Shown here: piece by piece, positions 9,236-62,290 of the stretch
Numbering within the stretch: position 1 is the stretch's first letter
Layout of the letters: each line of letters starts with the position of its first letter
Source: a virus
Taxonomy: Duplodnaviria; Caudoviricetes
Length of the DNA: 64,000 nucleotides
Direction: 5' to 3' (one strand)
Virus record (IMG/VR): IMGVR_UViG_2974513674_000001
Coordinates: 48,226-112,225 of that record
The notes under the pieces: generated by a model
The model's database searches: none
What the model saw: the letters and a program-made list of their open reading frames with translations, nothing else
Told to the model about the DNA's origin: nothing
Program-made: the position numbers and the translations under genes

Positions 9236-10516
9236 ATGAAAGAAGCAAACGACATCGACGAGCTGGAAGCCCTGCTTTCTGGTCTTAACGAAGACGAACT
9301 GAACCAGCTCGAAGAGTTGGATACGCCTGTGGCCAAGCCAGCGCCTGTCACCGACGACGATGTCACCGACGCAGAACTGATCGGCGAAATCGAAGACGAG
9401 CCAGCCGCAGCACCTGCAAAGCCTGTGAAGCGTGTGAAACGTCTCAAGCCTCTGCCGGAAGAAACCCCGAAGCCGACTGCTGAAGCGTCTGACGAAGACG
9501 CAGAGCTGGCCGCCCTGGCAGAACTCGACACTCAACCTGTGATCGAGAAGGCCCCAGAGCCTGAACCTGAGCCCGAACCCGAGCCTGAAGTAGAAGCCGG
9601 CAACCCAGGCACCGGCGCAAGCGCTGCTGAAATCGTAGCCGAGCAAGTGATCGACCTGCTGACCACCCTGCCGCCGCAGTACGGCCTGGCTGAAGACGAA
9701 GACCTGTCTGAAATCTTCGACCCGATCCTGAACCGCATCACCGAGAACTCGAAGATCCACTTGATCGAGAAGGCGTTGCGCAAGGCTCTGATCAAGAAGA
9801 CTGGCCTGGACCCGACCGGCATTGTCACCCCACTCGAAGAACAGCCTGCGAAGACTGTAACCACCGAAGAAGTGACCGTGCATGTAGAGCCTGTCGTCGA
9901 GAAGACGCCTGAACCCGAACCCGAGCAAGCCGGCGACAGCGATGCTGAACTCGAAGCCTTGCTGGCAGCAGTCCCTGAAGTAGCCCCAGCTCCGAAGGCA
10001 ACTGTCACCTCCCCGTCGAAGCCGGTAGCAGTAACCCCGACTCGCAAGGCCGGTGGTCTGAACACCTTCATCGACGCTGACCAGTTGCAGAAAGACCTGC
10101 ACTTCACCGAGTTGACCATCAACGATGGCATGACCCGGCAAGCAGCGCTGTTCGCTCACTACGCCCGGTTGTCTGCTGACGCCACGTATCAGTCTGACCG
10201 TGCGAAGCAGCAAGTGGACCTCCTGGAAGCGCAGCTCAACCAGAAGTTCCGTGATTCGCTGGTCACAGCCGGCACCAAGTTCACTGAAAAATCCATCGAC
10301 TCGATGGTCATCCAGGACAGCAGCTACCAGGCCGCCCAGGAACGCGCTCACGAAGCGAAGGCTATCGCGTCGATGGTTGCATCTGCGGCGGACAGCTTCC
10401 GTCACCGCAAAGACATGCTGATCCAAGTTGGTGCAGACCTGCGCCTGGAGAAGCAGGGTGAACTTCGCATGAAGGCGCACCCGGGTCAGAGCGCCCTTGA
10501 TCAACTGGAGAAATAA
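9236..10516 (+). CDS. acidic Pro/Glu-rich protein with C-terminal helical domain (possible UvsY-like recombination mediator)
   Basis: low-complexity N-terminus with PE repeats; helical C-terminal ~130 aa; lies near SSB and RecA. Confidence 0.5.
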   Translation: MKEANDIDELEALLSGLNEDELNQLEELDTPVAKPAPVTDDDVTDAELIGEIEDEPAAAPAKPVKRVKRLKPLPEETPKPTAEASDEDAELAALAELDTQPVIEKAPEPEPEPEPEPEVEAGNPGTGASAAEIVAEQVIDLLTTLPPQYGLAEDEDLSEIFDPILNRITENSKIHLIEKALRKALIKKTGLDPTGIVTPLEEQPAKTVTTEEVTVHVEPVVEKTPEPEPEQAGDSDAELEALLAAVPEVAPAPKATVTSPSKPVAVTPTRKAGGLNTFIDADQLQKDLHFTELTINDGMTRQAALFAHYARLSADATYQSDRAKQQVDLLEAQLNQKFRDSLVTAGTKFTEKSIDSMVIQDSSYQAAQERAHEAKAIASMVASAADSFRHRKDMLIQVGADLRLEKQGELRMKAHPGQSALDQLEK

Positions 10517-10519
10517 CGA

Positions 10520-11044
10520 ATGGATCTACTGACTGTTGGCTGCATTGCGACCGTTGTCGCAGTAGCAGCCGGCGTCACGGTTTATGTGAACCGTAAACGC
10601 CGCCGTGCAATCGCTGCAATGGAACGTCGTCGTGCTGAGCGCCGCGATCCACCCATAACCGAGCCGAATCGCTACTCCGGTCCTCCAAGTAGCCTGGTTC
10701 AAAAGGTCAATGGCAACAAAATTCACGACGCCGGTCCGAAAGACATCGCCCTGATGCCGGATCGTCGCCGAGCACCAACGCCGGATCGTCGTGTGACCCC
10801 GCGCCCAGCAGCAACCGGTGCAGGTCGTCGTGCAGATGACGAGGCAGAGCGCCGCCGTCGTGACAATGACCGCCGTGATGACAGCGACTACATCGCTCCG
10901 CAATGTTCCCCGTCTTATCACGACACCAGCTCCAGCCATCGTAGCAGCAGCTCCTGCGGTGGTTCTTCCTGGGGTGGTTCGTCGAGCAGTTCCGACAGCT
11001 CGTCGTCCTCCAGTTCTGATTCCGGTTCGTCTTCGTGCGACTGA
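10520..11044 (+). CDS. membrane-anchored protein with Arg-rich middle and Ser/Gly tail
   Basis: N-terminal hydrophobic helix followed by RKRRR; ends SSSSDSGSSSCD. Confidence 0.7.
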   Translation: MDLLTVGCIATVVAVAAGVTVYVNRKRRRAIAAMERRRAERRDPPITEPNRYSGPPSSLVQKVNGNKIHDAGPKDIALMPDRRRAPTPDRRVTPRPAATGAGRRADDEAERRRRDNDRRDDSDYIAPQCSPSYHDTSSSHRSSSSCGGSSWGGSSSSSDSSSSSSSDSGSSSCD

Positions 11045-16292: not shown

Positions 16293-18226
16293 AAATCCTG
16301 AAGGCGATCATCGACAACTTCGCCGCCATTGGGCACATCGAGGTCGAGCTGAATGACAAGGGCTTGGTGCTGATCCAGGGCGACAACAAGGACGACACTT
16401 CCCAGGACTCGAACGGTTCGGGCAAGTCGACCCTGCCGGATGCGCTGTGCTGGGCCTTCTACGGCGAGACTGCCAAAGGTCAGTCCGGTGACAAGCTGGT
16501 CAACCGCACCGCCAAGAAAGACTGCGCCGTTGAAGTGCATGTGGTCGACGAAGACACCGACGACGTGTTCCGCATCAGTCGTCACCGCAAGCACAAGACC
16601 TACAAGAACATGCTGCGCCTGGAAGTGCTTCAGGGCTCGAACTGGAAAGACCTCACCGGCGGCACCGACAAGCTGACCCAGGCGCTGGTCGAGAAGGTGA
16701 TCGGCTGCAACTACGAAGTCTTCAAGTCCGCGATCTACGCTGGCCAAGAAGCCATGCCCGATCTGCCAGGCATGACCGACAAGCAACTGAAGGTGCTGAT
16801 CGAAGAGAGCGCCGGCATTGCACAGCTTCAAGCAGCCTCTGACATCGCGAACCGCCACGTCAAAGACCGCAAGCTGATCGTTCAGGATCACCAGGGCAAG
16901 ATCGACAAGCTCCAGTCCAACATCGAATTGCTGGACAGCAACATCGTGACCCTCAAAAGCCGTTCGGAAGCCTGGGAAATCACTCAAGAAGCCAATATTG
17001 GCATCGCTGAAGACAACGTGACCACGCTCGAAGCCTCGTTCGACGACGCCCTGGGCGACCGCATCACGAAGAAGAAGACCCAGCTCGCTGACAAGTCCTC
17101 TGAAATTCGCACGCAGATCGCCGGCAGTGATGCTGAGCGTCTGCAAGAGCGTGTGCTGGCTGATGCGAAGGCGAAGGCTGACGCAGGCGAGTCGAACGCT
17201 GCCCACGCTTATGACACGGCCAAGAACCGCGTCAGCCACGCAGAGCACGCCTTGTCGCACGCCGGTGAGTCCGGTCACTGTGACACCTGCGGTCACGAAC
17301 TCGACGCCAGCAACGTCGAGACGGCTAAAGCCAACGCTCAAGCAACGCTCGACAGCGAGAAATCAGCGCTTGCAGCAGCGAAGAAGGCACTGTCTGTAGC
17401 GCACGACAGCGCTGATACAGCGACGAAAGCGCTAGCAGAGCATCGCGACAACATGACAGACGTTAGCGCGCTCACAAGCGAGCTACAGACGATCAGCGAG
17501 AACAGCGCGAAGCTGGACGCTGCGCTGACCGCCTGGAATCGTCAGAAGACTGGTCTTGAAGCGGCGAAGGCCAACGTCCAGGCTGAGCGCGACAAGAAGA
17601 ACCCCTACGGTCAACAGATCACCGACGCCGAAGCGCAGATCGACACGATCAACGCCAAGATCGAGGAAGTCGAAGAGCGCCGGGTCGAAGCAGCCAAAGA
17701 GCTGTTCATCGCCGAAGAAGCGGCGCGAGTGTACAACCAGGCCGGCGTGCGAGCGCACATCCTGGACACCGTGACGCCGCACCTGAACGCCCGCACGTCG
17801 CACTACCTGTCCACGCTGACTGACGGCAACGTCTCCGCTATCTGGTCGACCGTCAGCAAGACTGCCAAAGGCGAGCTGCGCGAGAAGTTCGTGATCGACG
17901 TGGAGTCCAAGACGGGCGGCGAGTCCTTCAAAGACCTGTCGGGCGGTGAGAAGCGCAAGGTTCGCCTGGCGTGTGCAATGGCTCTGCAAGACCTGGTTGC
18001 AAGCCGGGCCAACAAGCCGATCAAGCTGTTCATCGCGGACGAAATCGACACCGCACTCGACGCAGCCGGCCTGGAACGCCTGATGGCAATCCTCGATGCG
18101 AAGTCGCGAGACAAGGGCACCGTTCTGGTAGTCTCCCACTCCGACCTCCGCGACTTCATCCGTAACAGCGTGACGGTCGTCAAGCAGGGCGGCAAAGCTA
18201 CCCTGGAAGCCAACACTATCCTGTGA
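16289..18226 (+). CDS. sbcC: SbcC/Rad50-like ATPase
   Basis: Walker A NGSGKS, coiled coil with CDTC zinc hook, LSGGE signature, IADE Walker B; start at ATG overlapping the sbcD stop. Confidence 0.92.
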   Translation: MKILKAIIDNFAAIGHIEVELNDKGLVLIQGDNKDDTSQDSNGSGKSTLPDALCWAFYGETAKGQSGDKLVNRTAKKDCAVEVHVVDEDTDDVFRISRHRKHKTYKNMLRLEVLQGSNWKDLTGGTDKLTQALVEKVIGCNYEVFKSAIYAGQEAMPDLPGMTDKQLKVLIEESAGIAQLQAASDIANRHVKDRKLIVQDHQGKIDKLQSNIELLDSNIVTLKSRSEAWEITQEANIGIAEDNVTTLEASFDDALGDRITKKKTQLADKSSEIRTQIAGSDAERLQERVLADAKAKADAGESNAAHAYDTAKNRVSHAEHALSHAGESGHCDTCGHELDASNVETAKANAQATLDSEKSALAAAKKALSVAHDSADTATKALAEHRDNMTDVSALTSELQTISENSAKLDAALTAWNRQKTGLEAAKANVQAERDKKNPYGQQITDAEAQIDTINAKIEEVEERRVEAAKELFIAEEAARVYNQAGVRAHILDTVTPHLNARTSHYLSTLTDGNVSAIWSTVSKTAKGELREKFVIDVESKTGGESFKDLSGGEKRKVRLACAMALQDLVASRANKPIKLFIADEIDTALDAAGLERLMAILDAKSRDKGTVLVVSHSDLRDFIRNSVTVVKQGGKATLEANTIL

Positions 18227-26981: not shown

Positions 26982-27287
26982 ATGCGAGCGAATATGAGAG
27001 CGATACAGACGTCCTCCGCGTTAGTTGTGCTCATTGCTGCAAGTGTTCTAGTTGTCGTCGCTGCACACGCTACAGAGCGTCACAGCGACACGCACAGCGA
27101 GCACAGACATAGCAGACACGAAACGCGACACATACACGCAGAACGCGAGCGCTACGAGCACCCGCCGCTGCACAGCGAAGGCACTCGGGAAGATGCCGAC
27201 GCCTATCCCTCGTTCGATGATCCGGCTGACTACCGTGAAACCAATCGCTACAACCCATACTCCGATGAAACCTACGACGAAGAGTGA
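26982..27287 (+). CDS. signal-peptide-bearing His-rich hypothetical protein
   Basis: hydrophobic N-terminus; contains a CC/GG-free patch at 27017-27161. Confidence 0.5.
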   Translation: MRANMRAIQTSSALVVLIAASVLVVVAAHATERHSDTHSEHRHSRHETRHIHAERERYEHPPLHSEGTREDADAYPSFDDPADYRETNRYNPYSDETYDEE

Positions 27288-47105: not shown

Positions 47106-47200
47106 CCAAAGTGCGCTGCTGGTCGCCGACTGGCAGCCACGCACTGCCTTGATCTGTCTCGTAAAATGCTTGCACACGTCACAAACGAGAGTGCAAGAAA

Positions 47201-47752
47201 ATGACAGATAAGAAGAACGGCCATGACCACGACCCAGCTCATGAGTGCGCACACTGCGCAGCACTCGCTTCAGGCATGTCTGAAGAAGAGGCTCTTGTCG
47301 CCGGCCTGCTGACCACTCAGCAGATGATCCAGGCTCACGGCATCGCAGTCATGGGTGTCGGTCCTGACCCTGAGACTGGCATCCCCTCGTTCTGCTACAC
47401 CACTGGGTTCACCAGCATTGGCTTCCCAGAAGTCATCTGCTTCGGCGTAGACCCTCGCGTTCTCACCCACGTCTTCAACATCTACCACGCTGAGCTGCTT
47501 GCGGGCAGCAAACAGCCGGGTGCCGGGTTGATCGACTACTTCGAGCTGCCGATTCATGCCATCGAGTGCGACTTCGACAACGCCAAAGAGTTCGCGACCC
47601 AGGCTGTCGCCTACTACGAGATTGTCGAAGACGACAAGGTCACACCGAATTTCGTTCAATGGGTGCTGGCTGACATGAACGGCAAGATGCCCTGGGAACC
47701 CGGCTTCAACCCGGCGTTCACTCAACCGCTGCTGGGAGCAACACCGGAATGA
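47201..47752 (+). CDS. DUF4262-like protein
   Basis: FCYTTG...PEVICFG...Q.V..D..G..PWE. Confidence 0.7.
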   Translation: MTDKKNGHDHDPAHECAHCAALASGMSEEEALVAGLLTTQQMIQAHGIAVMGVGPDPETGIPSFCYTTGFTSIGFPEVICFGVDPRVLTHVFNIYHAELLAGSKQPGAGLIDYFELPIHAIECDFDNAKEFATQAVAYYEIVEDDKVTPNFVQWVLADMNGKMPWEPGFNPAFTQPLLGATPE

Positions 47753-48174: not shown

Positions 48175-48265
48175 AACGCTTGCAAACGCCAACACTCCCC
48201 AGTTGCTCTCTCGTAAAATGATCACAACAGCAGCAAACAAGCTGCGATAACGAGAGAGCAACATC

Positions 48266-48829
48266 ATGACCAAGAAAACTTACGAAGATGGCCTGCCCCT
48301 GGGCGTGATTGGTATCTTCAACTTCCGCGAAATCACCGATCTTCAGATCATGGTCCCGATGGGCCTGCGCACCAAGTACGAAGCTGTGATGCGTGCAAAA
48401 GACCGCACCATCGTTGCTCGCGTCGAATTCGCCGAGTACCTGAAGCTGCGCAGCCACCTCGCCGAAGAAATGCACATCGGCCTGAAGTACACCGACTGCG
48501 TGCTCGACGCCACTCTCGACTTCAACAAACGCTTTGAAGCCGCCCGGGCCGAGAACAAGCCGAGTTCTATGCTCAGTCAGTATGAGTCACGCGGCGTGAC
48601 CTACAGCGTCATACATCACCCGGCTCAGCACCATGTTCATTACAACCCGGCTCAAGACCGCATTGAGCCCGAGTTCTACCGCGCTGTGGCTCAGCACACA
48701 GCCGTCGAAGACCCTGACGAGTGCCTTATCTTCGACGAAGTCGTCGATACCCTGTTCGATGCCGTTGTTGTGATTCGTACCCACATCGAGAAAGACCTGA
48801 TCAACACCTTCATGAAGGGGACCATGTGA
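48266..48829 (+). CDS. hypothetical protein
   Basis: promoter CC-N8-CC-N13-TAAAAT at 48189-48219. Confidence 0.68.
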   Translation: MTKKTYEDGLPLGVIGIFNFREITDLQIMVPMGLRTKYEAVMRAKDRTIVARVEFAEYLKLRSHLAEEMHIGLKYTDCVLDATLDFNKRFEAARAENKPSSMLSQYESRGVTYSVIHHPAQHHVHYNPAQDRIEPEFYRAVAQHTAVEDPDECLIFDEVVDTLFDAVVVIRTHIEKDLINTFMKGTM

Positions 48830-55427: not shown

Positions 55428-55619
55428 TTAGACTTTCCCGAAAAACTTTTTGAAAGCCAGTTTCCGAGCTTCCCACTTTTCTGCCTTGAGTCGATCCTGC
55501 TCCACAAGCTCGTCCCAGCGATAGTACGTTTTGACTCCCAGAACGTCCCGTTTGAATTCGCTCCAAGCCCAGCCCAAGAAGACGAAAACACATACTACTG
55601 CGAAAATCATGCTCATCAT
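55428..55619 (-). CDS. small membrane-anchored protein
   Basis: AAGGA RBS; hydrophobic N-terminus; sigma70 promoter TTGCAA-17-GATAAT on the minus strand (about 55653-55681). Confidence 0.6.
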   Translation of the reverse strand: MMSMIFAVVCVFVFLGWAWSEFKRDVLGVKTYYRWDELVEQDRLKAEKWEARKLAFKKFFGKV

Positions 55620-55738
55620 GTCCTTGCTTCCTTATTGTGTGTGCGTGCGATGATTATCGAATATTCGCTTGCTCATTGCAAGCATTATTTCGATATAAGC
55701 ATTATTCTTTTCCGATCTAAGAAAAATCGAAAATTCGC

Positions 55739-55766
55739 TTGCACACGTCTCGAATTCGCGTAGAAT
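55739..55766 (+). promoter_or_regulatory. canonical sigma70 promoter with A-rich UP element
   Basis: TTGCAC-16-TAGAAT, preceded by GAAAAATCGAAAATT. Confidence 0.75.
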
Positions 55767-55842
55767 TCAAATTGTCGAAACGCACAGCGCTAGACGAACT
55801 TAAACGAAGCGCAAAACGCGCTCATTAAACGAGAGAACTAAA

Positions 55843-56397
55843 ATGACTACTATCAACGCTAAAGCAGAATCTTTCAAAAACGTTTTTGCTACTGCTGCTG
55901 TTAACTACGCTCAAACTAAAGAGCAAGCGCAGCAAAACGCAGAACAAGCGCAGTCTGAAGAAGAGCGCGAAACTTTCGCTGCTGCTGCTAAGAAAGCTGA
56001 CACACACGCTCGCTACACTGAAGCGCTGTCGAACATGAGCGAAAAAGCGCTTGCAAGTCTGAGCAAGTACAAAGTTAACGCTGAAGCGCTTGCAGAACAA
56101 TCGCGTGAACTGAAAAAACGCTCTATCGCGATTCTTGAAGCGCTCGCAACAAAACAGCGTGTGAATGATCGCGCACTTGACGCAGTATTGCAGTACATCG
56201 TTAAAAACGATGCTGCTGCAATGAATCTTGAGCAAGTGCGTCATCAAATGCAGCATGATACTTTGACTCAAGCGCAATACTTCAAAACTTGCGCAATCTT
56301 CTTCAACTTCGCGCAATACTCGAAGTCTGAAAAGACTATCAGCTTCAATAAAGACGCAATCGTTCTTAAAGAGCTGATCGCAATCTACAGCGCTTAA
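55843..56397 (+). CDS. 184-aa helical protein with no Gly, Pro or Trp (candidate immediate-early regulator)
   Basis: own sigma70 promoter, GAGAG RBS and terminator; whole unit has no CC/GG. Confidence 0.85.
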   Translation: MTTINAKAESFKNVFATAAVNYAQTKEQAQQNAEQAQSEEERETFAAAAKKADTHARYTEALSNMSEKALASLSKYKVNAEALAEQSRELKKRSIAILEALATKQRVNDRALDAVLQYIVKNDAAAMNLEQVRHQMQHDTLTQAQYFKTCAIFFNFAQYSKSEKTISFNKDAIVLKELIAIYSA

Positions 56398-56406
56398 TCA
56401 ACACAC

Positions 56407-56440
56407 AAGCGCTACAGCACACGCTGTAGCGCTTTTCTCT
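56407..56440 (+). terminator. intrinsic terminator built without CC/GG
   Basis: AAGCGCTACAGC-acac-GCTGTAGCGCTT followed by TTCTCT. Confidence 0.8.
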
Positions 56441-56464
56441 CAGTCTAGCAGTCGAGCTATCAAT

Positions 56465-56788
56465 ATGAGTCATTCGCACGCTGTACGCGCTCACAGACAC
56501 GCTCTCACAGTAGATACACGCATGTACGCTACATGCGCACGCAATGCGCTGTATGAGCTGCGCTATGTGAAGCGCTCACAGCGCTACTATCTGCATGTAG
56601 CTAACAGCGTGAGCGTGATTGTAGACGCTGCTACAGCAAGCGCTGTATACGCTGCTATGATGCGTCATGTAGTGCGCACTACAGCTAAAGACAAGCGCGC
56701 TACTAGTGCGCGCACTAGTGTATATACAATGCGCAGTGATATACGTGCGCTGTTACTTGCTGAAAATATGAGCAAGTATGCGCACTAA
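56465..56788 (+). CDS. possible basic protein (also no Gly, Pro or Trp)
   Basis: 107-aa ORF with weak RBS; may be non-coding. Confidence 0.35.
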   Translation: MSHSHAVRAHRHALTVDTRMYATCARNALYELRYVKRSQRYYLHVANSVSVIVDAATASAVYAAMMRHVVRTTAKDKRATSARTSVYTMRSDIRALLLAENMSKYAH

Positions 56789-56798
56789 GTCACATTGA

Positions 56799-56827
56799 AC
56801 TAGTGCAACTTAGTTAGTTGCACTAGT
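56799..56827. repeat. perfect 12-bp inverted repeat
   Basis: ACTAGTGCAACT-tagtt-AGTTGCACTAGT; related palindrome ACTAGTGCGCGCACTAGT at 56702-56719. Confidence 0.8.
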
Positions 56828-56902
56828 CTAGTTGTCAAAGTCTTAGAAGGGATTTTTAAAGTCGCGCCCTATTGGCGCCAATGTGCCGGACCCCACAGAA
56901 GT

Positions 56903-56995
56903 CCCCTTACACAACCAGGGGCCGGAGTTAAACCACTAACCCCTTACACAACCACCCCGGAGACACCAAAAATGACAGAACCCCTTACACAACCA
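56903..56995 (+). repeat. three perfect 15-bp direct repeats CCCCTTACACAACCA
   Basis: copies at 56903, 56940 and 56981. Confidence 0.85.
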
Positions 56996-59152: not shown

Positions 59153-59640
59153 TGGTACAAATCATGATTCCGCCCCTGGGCACCGTTATCAAACTGACCG
59201 AAGACTGGCATTTCAGCCTGTACGACGAGAGCCGCAACGAGAAGCTCCAGAAACAGTGCGGTCTTCTGCCGCCATTCCGTGACGGCGAGGGTCTGTATGA
59301 ATGGCGTCGTTTGAGCCTGGCTGAGCGCCGGAAGCGAATCGACGAATCTGTCTGGACGCATGTGCCCTACGGTCATTCAACCGACCTCTGGGGCGGTGAG
59401 TGGCATACCCCGTTCGTGTTGCGCGCCGAAACCAGGCTGAAGATCGACCGCATCTACATTCGCCAGGGTCAGGGTGACTTCGACAGCGTGACCTTCCGAA
59501 GCGACTGCTGGATGTCGAATCTGGGCGATCCCCTGTTCACCAAGAAGTACGTCAACGGCCGCAAGGTGCCTAGCATTCGTTTTTGGGCTAAGCTGGCCGA
59601 CGTCAACAGAATCGAAGGGGTATTTGTGAATGACCGATGA
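59152..59640 (+). CDS. hypothetical protein
   Basis: IDRIYIRQG..DFDSVTF...RFWAKL. Confidence 0.65.
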   Translation: MVQIMIPPLGTVIKLTEDWHFSLYDESRNEKLQKQCGLLPPFRDGEGLYEWRRLSLAERRKRIDESVWTHVPYGHSTDLWGGEWHTPFVLRAETRLKIDRIYIRQGQGDFDSVTFRSDCWMSNLGDPLFTKKYVNGRKVPSIRFWAKLADVNRIEGVFVNDR

Positions 59641-59962
59641 AGATGGCAACCCAGTAGACCCGGAAGAAGGGATCAAGCAGTTGGCCGACGTGGTGATCGA
59701 GTGGCACGCCAGCAGGCATCGCCAGATCGACGAGATTCTCGCCAGCGAGAGCAAGAAGGGGATCAAGGTCACGAACACCGACGACGATTCCGAAATCATC
59801 ATCGAAGGCGACAAGCTCGCAGGCTTCAGAGCCGGGTTGCACGTCGCTAAGATGATTCTGGGCAAGCTACCGTTCTCTCTGGAAGACCCCTGCGACGACG
59901 CGGATGAAGACGAGCCAGAACCTGAGCCGATTCGGCCCGCAGACTTCGGCCACTTCTCGTAA
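59630..59962 (+). CDS. hypothetical protein, C-terminal tag RPADFGHFS
   Basis: last gene before terminator at 59972-60012. Confidence 0.65.
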   Translation: MTDEDGNPVDPEEGIKQLADVVIEWHASRHRQIDEILASESKKGIKVTNTDDDSEIIIEGDKLAGFRAGLHVAKMILGKLPFSLEDPCDDADEDEPEPEPIRPADFGHFS

Positions 59963-60078
59963 CCTGCAAGCGAAAACCACGACCGCTATCACCAGGGTCG
60001 TGGTTTTTCTTTGCCCAATGTTGACTTATCTAGTAAACGCTTGCAAAATAGCAGTACACACAAAGAGATTTTTAGATC

Positions 60079-60678
60079 ATGAAACATAACCTGCAATTTG
60101 GCGAAGTTACACTGCCCTGTCGCGAGGTAGTCGTCGAAGAGCAGACGTACCTCGTACCGCGCGGCATCGCCCGCAATCATCGGAACAAGTCCTGGCAGGT
60201 CAAGATCGCAAGGGCCGGAGTTCTGGTGCTCTCGGGCAATCACGCTGACAGCCTCTATGGCGGTACAGAGGGCGCCCTGAAGACGGCAATCGACCAGGTT
60301 GTCGCTGCCACTGAAGTGAAGCCGTCGCGCACGCTGAAGATCAGCAACCGTGTCAGCCTGGTGTGGGCGTACAGCGGCCGCAACGTGCTGAGCATGAACG
60401 CGCTCGTCTACAGCCCGCACCGCAAGCGCAGCGCGACCATCTACCTGATCAGCTACACCAAGCTGACGGCAGAGAAAGTGGGCGATCTGAAGAAGAAGCT
60501 GGTGAAGGCTCTGCTGCGCGAGTGGCAAGAAGAGAACCTTGATCAAGCGGTTCCAGTGTCGGTCATGGTCCGAATGGATCGTGAAGCCGTCAAGATCATG
60601 GCTGGAAAGTCGTGGGAAGACTTCGTGAAGATGGGTGCCGGCATGGCTGACACCCAGGAGGTTGACTCAGAGGTCTGA
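60079..60678 (+). CDS. hypothetical protein (possible AP2-like DNA-binding domain)
   Basis: sigma70-like TTGACT-17-CAAAAT at 60021-60049; SWQVKI...YGG.E.AL..A. Confidence 0.6.
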   Translation: MKHNLQFGEVTLPCREVVVEEQTYLVPRGIARNHRNKSWQVKIARAGVLVLSGNHADSLYGGTEGALKTAIDQVVAATEVKPSRTLKISNRVSLVWAYSGRNVLSMNALVYSPHRKRSATIYLISYTKLTAEKVGDLKKKLVKALLREWQEENLDQAVPVSVMVRMDREAVKIMAGKSWEDFVKMGAGMADTQEVDSEV

Positions 60679-62211: not shown

Positions 62212-62290
62212 TGGTCGGGCCAGGAGGACTCGAACCTCCACCATCACCGGCATCGAGCGCCGGCCGCTTTCCCACTTTGCGTACAGCCCG
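62212..62290 (-). tRNA. atypical tRNA (nominal anticodon TCG, Arg)
   Basis: 7-bp acceptor stem plus ACCA, T-arm GGAGG-TTCGAGT-CCTCC, anticodon stem CCGGC/GCCGG with non-canonical loop GCTCGAT. Confidence 0.7.

Follow-up and report, generated by a model that had tools for sequence, protein, structure and literature searches.

In phage T4, middle promoters are activated through MotA and AsiA (sigma appropriation), whereby an early phage protein lets the host sigma70 enzyme use promoters in which a phage-specific box near -30 replaces the -35 hexamer. Other regulators, such as members of the MarR and ArsR/SmtB families and TubR of type III partition, bind DNA through a winged helix. The pre-early (first-step-transfer) region of phage T5 and the leading end of T7 with gene 0.3 are first-expressed cassettes with strong host-type promoters. 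It is also established that phage genomes avoid short sequences read by a host factor, such as restriction sites and CRISPR PAMs (PMC4246573, PMC12174588). We examined a putative early gene of a Pseudomonas phage on a 64,000-nucleotide stretch of DNA (hereafter the window), which is the right-hand 64 kb of a 112,225-bp genome. The genome is close to the Nickievirus phages of Pseudomonas syringae, ZY21, phiK7B1, Nican01 and hairong, which are siphoviruses, and long direct terminal repeats are reported for Nican01 (PMC11256456). Nearly all genes are on the + strand. The gene studied here (window 55843-56397, product P0001) is conserved and syntenic in all of these phages, and everywhere it is annotated only as hypothetical.

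A preliminary description made from the sequence alone had pointed out that P0001 lacks Gly, Pro and Trp because of a constraint on the DNA, and this observation was confirmed and proved stronger than stated. Its interpretation, that P0001 is an immediate-early master activator allowing host RNA polymerase to use CC-N8-CC promoters or to transcribe through modified DNA (or, alternatively, an anti-defence protein), was only partly supported.

The GG/CC-free island and its features

The ORF translates to 184 aa with 0 Gly, 0 Pro and 0 Trp. The cause lies at the DNA level, as had been proposed, but it is local. Across the window GG and CC are only mildly depleted (observed/expected 0.74 and 0.80, respectively), and the ratio is 0.74–0.82 outside the island, which rules out a genome-wide constraint. 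In contrast, one run of 1137 bp (55713-56849) contains neither dinucleotide, whereas the next longest run, both in the window and in the whole genome, is 145 bp. The following features were identified in and around this island:

55623-56849 (no strand): GG/CC-free island; 55713-56849 has no GG or CC, and the 82 bp before it (55631-55712) are also free, apart from one CC at 55712-55713. It covers the divergent promoter region, two genes and two terminators.
55428-55619 (-): divergent 63-aa ORF (P0076) with a hydrophobic N-terminus, not under the GG/CC ban.
55656-55744 (+): two copies of a 19-bp element, ATCGAAWATTCGCTTGCNC (55656-55674 and 55726-55744), the only copies in the window (2 matches against 0.02 expected); each holds a CGAA..TTCG palindrome, and they are possible operators.
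55667-55683 (+): hairpin GCTTGC-N5-GCAAGC followed by a T-rich run, which looks like a terminator and overlaps the - strand promoter TTGCAA-17-GATAAT (55681-55653).
55739-55766 (+): host-type promoter with a -35-like TTGCAC (55739-55744), a 16-nt spacer and the -10 box TAGAAT (55761-55766), preceded by a conserved A-rich stretch, TCTAAGAAAAATCGAAAAT.
55843-56397 (+): CDS of P0001, with a GAGAG-type RBS that contains no GG; the predicted protein has an N-terminal helical hairpin (residues 3-63), linker helices and a C-terminal winged helix (about 105-184).
56408-56439 (+): intrinsic terminator-like hairpin (11-bp stem, ACAC loop) followed by TTTTCTC; the same hairpin follows the hairong gene.
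56465-56788 (+): second island ORF (P0075), 107 aa, pI 10.4, no Gly, Pro or Trp; kept in ZY21 and Nican01, only weakly similar in the metagenomic relative L007 and absent in the metagenomic relative L008.
56800-56826 (+): second hairpin, CTAGTGCAAC-N7-GTTGCACTAG; the island ends 22 nt after it.
56903-56995 (+): three exact 15-bp direct repeats, CCCCTTACACAACCA (starting at 56903, 56940 and 56981), just after the island and across the start of the next gene; each contains CC-N8-CC. Related copies lie at the same place in hairong (L014, about 10090-10150), and they could be a binding-site cluster.
59630-59962: gene for a Mu Gam-like DNA end-protection protein (phrog_15896, E 4e-44) in the same early region.
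60079-60678 (+): gene for a second early DNA-binding candidate (P0139, 199 aa) with its own TTGACT-17-CAAAAT promoter at 60021-60049.

To determine whether the ban acts on nucleotides or on codons, we shuffled synonymous codons while keeping the protein and its codon usage. This gave 14.9±2.6 GG/CC at codon junctions (minimum 7 in 3000 shuffles), whereas the observed count is 0. For P0075 the figures were 8.5±1.95 against 0. As codon junctions and non-coding parts both obey the ban, a codon, tRNA or amino-acid-level cause was rejected. The only tRNA in the window is tRNA-Arg (anticodon tcg, 62212-62290, - strand), while Nican01 carries five other tRNAs in the corresponding region.

Shorter GG/CC-free stretches were also seen elsewhere. 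Patches of 100–165 bp with a composition resembling that of the island (rich in AGCGC and ACAG) lie at 17387-17515 and 27017-27161, and Nican01 has a 164-bp run in the chromosome-segregation (SbcC-like) gene (L004, 6323-6486). Moreover, stretches from promoter to start codon (47148-47219, 48200-48270 and other 5' leaders) are typically free of GG/CC for 45–70 nt, and many genes use a GG-less ribosome-binding site, AACGAGAG or GAGAG.

With regard to the promoter of P0001, the -35 matches the consensus at only 3 of 6 positions, so the consensus scan did not list it. That scan did list the two other host-type promoters named in the preliminary description, those of the divergent gene and of the 60079 gene. 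The P0001 promoter is nevertheless conserved in five relatives, and its key positions are invariant across five genomes. The pattern CGCTTGCA-N16/17-TAGAAT occurs in hairong and in the distant L012 (a contig of 59% GC), and the promoter recurs as CGCTTGCA-N17-TAGAATTCA in front of a homologue that is only about 32% identical. The GCTTGC/GCAAGC palindromes were considered as operators, but the stem is kept in relatives while the spacing varies, so they are more likely terminator stems.

Conservation, extent and turnover of the ban

The island is present in ZY21 (1108 bp), Nican01 (1083 bp), hairong (1125 bp), L007 (1188 bp) and L008 (785 bp, this gene only), and also around the very distant homologues L009, L010 (a 38.5% GC contig, 1620 bp) and L012. 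It is thus found around homologues down to about 30% protein identity and in contigs of 38–59% GC. In contrast, it is absent around the homologues L006, L011 and L013, the last of which carries the sister of the L012 gene and comes from the same sample. Of 72 close homologues, nearly all have no Gly, Pro or Trp. A profile search found 64 clusters at 50% identity, in which fully free and normal members are interleaved. On a maximum-likelihood tree of 67 members the free state needs 10–11 changes, and well-supported branches force at least 6. Of all possible point changes 26%, and of synonymous ones 30%, would create GG or CC, yet the 104–303 differences from relatives created only 0–1 (naive probability 1e-13 to 1e-39). 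The ban is therefore maintained by purifying selection and is evolutionarily labile.

The ban starts 5–14 nt upstream of the -10 box in five of six Nickievirus genomes; in ZY21, Nican01, L007, L008 and hairong the last GG or CC before the island lies in the promoter spacer. It ends about 20–100 nt after the last stop codon or terminator, that is, about 95–100 nt after the stop codon where the gene stands alone (L008, L009) and 22 nt after the second hairpin in the window. The banned stretch is therefore the transcription unit itself, from about the -10 box to the terminator, which points to something acting either on DNA while it is transcribed or on the RNA. These two possibilities cannot be told apart from sequence, although a single rule on double-stranded DNA is the more economical reading, since GG on one strand is CC on the other. 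The ban seems tied to the first transcription unit rather than to the chemistry of this protein. No paper describing such islands was found in the literature searched, and PMC12174588 reports only mild genome-wide CC depletion, in P. aeruginosa phages.

The predicted fold of P0001 and the CC-N8-CC promoter class

An alignment-based AlphaFold2 model of P0001 was very confident (pLDDT 95.9, pTM 0.89). Residues 3-63 form a long helical hairpin, which resembles ESCRT-III hairpins only generically, and residues about 105-184 form a winged helix exactly where it had been guessed from the sequence. In this domain (H110-121, E126-128, H129-135, H142-153, E157-160 and E165-168) EQVRHQM is helix 2 (129-135), TQAQYFKTCAIF is the recognition helix (142-153) and the wing is at 157-168, so that the three-helix bundle with a beta-hairpin wing after the recognition helix is present in the model. 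A structure search that does not depend on Foldseek matched the domain to TubR (6tey, Z 8.5, rmsd 2.2 over 74 residues) and to many ArsR/SmtB and MarR members (Z 7–8); overall Z was 7–8.8 and rmsd 2.2–2.7 over about 72–76 residues. It should be noted that these Z values are middling for a helical protein. Foldseek gave the same families weakly, with hits to MarR, Csa3 and CadC, and also PCI-type winged helices, which bind proteins. Family-wide conserved positions are T54-H55, S87-R88-E89-x-K91-K92-R93 and H138-x-x-x-T142-Q143-A144-x-Y146, the last group being at the start of the recognition helix. The protein is nearly neutral (net charge +2). Searches of Pfam, PHROGs, NCBIfam, PADLOC and PDB sequence profiles gave no usable family match, and the ESM Atlas gave only unnamed clusters below 0.9. 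We read P0001 as a new family of dimeric winged-helix DNA binders, with DNA binding itself being inferred.

The CC-N8-CC-N13-(-10) promoter class is real and strongly strand-specific, with 16 on the + strand against 1 on the - strand in the window, and 20 against 3 in the genome. All copies lie between genome positions 43.7 and 105.9 kb (window 1674-57680), outside the structural module, and all have a TATAAT-like, sigma70-like -10 box. A subclass reads CCGACACATGCC-(A/T)TTT-GCAAGCGTTTAC-TAT. The class is shared by the Nickievirus-like relatives. No phage sigma region 4 was detected in the genome, and an early phage factor acting with the host sigma70 enzyme is therefore a reasonable need. A search for a T7-type RNA polymerase was uninformative because its control gave no signal. 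As to modified DNA, no C5 or N4/N6 methyltransferase and no DpdA/TGT gene was found, and the annotations of the relatives list only ordinary nucleotide metabolism; this part of the earlier inference has no support, although unknown enzymes cannot be excluded.

P0001 is not the only candidate for such a factor. The model of P0139 (pLDDT 83) shows an AP2-like N-terminal domain (SIP2 AP2, Z 6.0; ApiAP2-type proteins, Z 6.5–6.7), and with its own host-type promoter and no family match this protein is an equal candidate. In relatives without the ban, arrays of CC/GG-containing repeats stand in front of the P0001 homologue. In L011 nine tandem copies of CCGTTCGTCGG, each followed by an A-run and a TTGAC box, lie upstream of the gene (9692-9889) and one inverted copy lies downstream (10840-10850), and in L006 GCCATGGG is found, the same motif also preceding other genes there. 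This is as expected for a DNA binder that also regulates itself.

Possible roles and comparison with known systems

The explanation we consider best, though about as likely as not, is that P0001 is an immediate-early, sequence-specific DNA-binding regulator. In this view, host sigma70 RNA polymerase transcribes the gene from a conserved strong promoter as a short unit with its own terminator. The N-terminal hairpin would probably make dimers or higher oligomers, while the winged helix, with its nearly invariant H-x-x-T-x-TQA-x-Y recognition helix and the SRExKKR helix, would bind DNA. The protein would most likely set the early-to-middle switch, either by activating the phage's -35-less promoters or by shutting off early promoters, a target not being established on present evidence. 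The gene is a core, syntenic gene after a long non-coding gap in all relatives. The unit would be kept free of the GG.CC step by ongoing selection, most likely because an unidentified factor that needs this step, on DNA being transcribed or on the RNA, cannot then act on the phage's first gene; the loss of Gly, Pro and Trp would be a by-product. What the analysis itself demonstrates is the ban with its extent, conservation and repeated gain and loss, as well as the fold (as a model), the promoter and the terminator. Early timing, which rests on promoter type and neighbourhood without transcript data, is inferred, as are DNA binding, the regulatory role and the reason for the ban.

The more specific proposal, that P0001 is a MotA-like master activator that binds the 12-bp CC-N8-CC box centred near -31 and lets host sigma70 RNA polymerase use the phage's -35-less middle promoters, is a fair and plausible but unproven hypothesis, which we consider clearly less likely than not. 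It is favoured by the promoter class, by the absence of a detected sigma region 4, by P0001 being one of three units with host-type promoters and having a predicted DNA-binding fold, and by the three CC-N8-CC-containing repeats just after its cassette. However, nothing links the protein to these boxes, which are not palindromic, and the H..T.TQA.Y motif is just as conserved in relatives (L006, L009, L011) whose loci lack the class and carry other upstream motifs. It is somewhat less likely that P0001 is an early repressor, or a factor for DNA entry or protection comparable in role to the DNA-binding A2 protein of T5 pre-early DNA, with another early protein such as P0139 activating the middle promoters. 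The two 19-bp elements over its own promoter region, the repeat arrays in front of homologues, the long terminal repeats of Nican01 and the nearby Mu Gam-like gene would fit. On the other hand, no similarity to any T5 protein was found in PHROGs, two-step DNA entry has not been shown for this group, and the physical ends could not be placed, since the assemblies are permuted and the Nican01 repeats are reported without coordinates. The L012 contig starts 243 bp upstream of the homologue, inside tandem TTGACA promoters (1-243), which could be a repeat boundary or a physical end.

An anti-defence role, in which P0001 neutralises the factor that reads GG/CC or another host defence through a winged helix binding a protein or nucleic-acid part of it, appears doubtful. 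It would be the first gene expressed, from a strong promoter in a cassette that cannot be targeted, the turnover of the ban looks like an arms-race trait, and some winged helices (such as the PCI type) bind proteins. Nevertheless, it is a core gene also kept in relatives without the ban, it has a conserved DNA-reading-type helix, it is not acidic and so not a DNA mimic, and PADLOC gave no hit of value. Very unlikely is a centromere- or iteron-binding protein, like TubR or a Rep protein, inherited from phage-plasmid ancestors. TubR is the best single-domain fold match, repeats flank the L011 homologue, and the group is related to SSU5-type phage-plasmids (PMC7969092). But the TubR match is tied with MarR and ArsR matches, no tubulin-family (TubZ) gene was found in the genome, no tandem array lies next to the gene in the window (only in the distant L011), no homologues were found among PLSDB plasmids, and Nican01 is predicted virulent. 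Among cultured phages only Nickievirus has homologues. Avoidance of CRISPR PAMs (type I-F CC, or NGG) as the reason for the ban also seems very unlikely. A bare GG.CC step in double-stranded DNA is exactly what a CC PAM is, the island has no CC on either strand, and the mild genome-wide CC depletion published for P. aeruginosa phages (PMC12174588) would fit, but CRISPR-Cas is almost absent from the P. syringae complex, where it is among the rarest defences (PMC13182921), targeting elsewhere would still kill the phage, as protecting 1% of a genome would not save it, and a GG or CC sits in the promoter spacer in five of six genomes.

A bolder reading, which we regard as possible but slightly less likely than not, is that a still unidentified and widespread agent, either a host defence or a phage shut-off factor, acts wherever a GG.CC step occurs in DNA being transcribed or in its RNA, and that phages of many kinds answer it by writing their very first transcription unit without that step. 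In the Nickievirus group this unit would be the gene for the top-level winged-helix regulator, which would pay by losing three amino acids, and the repeated switching of the ban in this one family would mark it as an arms-race trait. The regulator explanation would give a name and a testable role to the first gene of a group of cultured phages of a crop pathogen's bacterial host (nickie, ZY21, phiK7B1, hairong and Nican01). More broadly, this is a clean case of a nucleotide-level rule overriding the amino-acid alphabet of a protein, for which we found no description in the papers searched. As the ban stops and starts with the transcription unit and has been gained and lost many times in one family, the family is a good system for finding the reader of GG/CC; the ban also occurs here in cultured phages.

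Compared with T4 MotA/AsiA, this genome has a corresponding promoter class, with a box near -30 in place of the -35 and a sigma70-like -10 box, but this is a property of the genome and not of P0001. MotA has an N-terminal sigma-binding domain, and its C-terminal DNA-binding domain is a 'double wing'; the P0001 model shows a winged helix instead, MotA was not among the listed fold matches, no Pfam hit was obtained and no AsiA-like partner was identified. With MarR, ArsR/SmtB and TubR proteins P0001 shares the predicted fold of its C-terminal 80 residues, without profile-level sequence similarity, and it differs by a unique 65-residue N-terminal helical hairpin and its own conserved motifs. As in the T5 pre-early region and the leading end of T7, an apparently first-expressed cassette with strong host-type promoters is found, here with an end-protection gene nearby and in a group where long terminal repeats are reported, while a total ban on one dinucleotide is not known to have been described for T5 or T7. 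Finally, motif avoidance in phage genomes likewise reflects selection against a short sequence that a host factor reads, but here the avoidance is absolute, is confined to one transcription unit, concerns a bare dinucleotide step and is strong enough to remove three amino acids from the protein.
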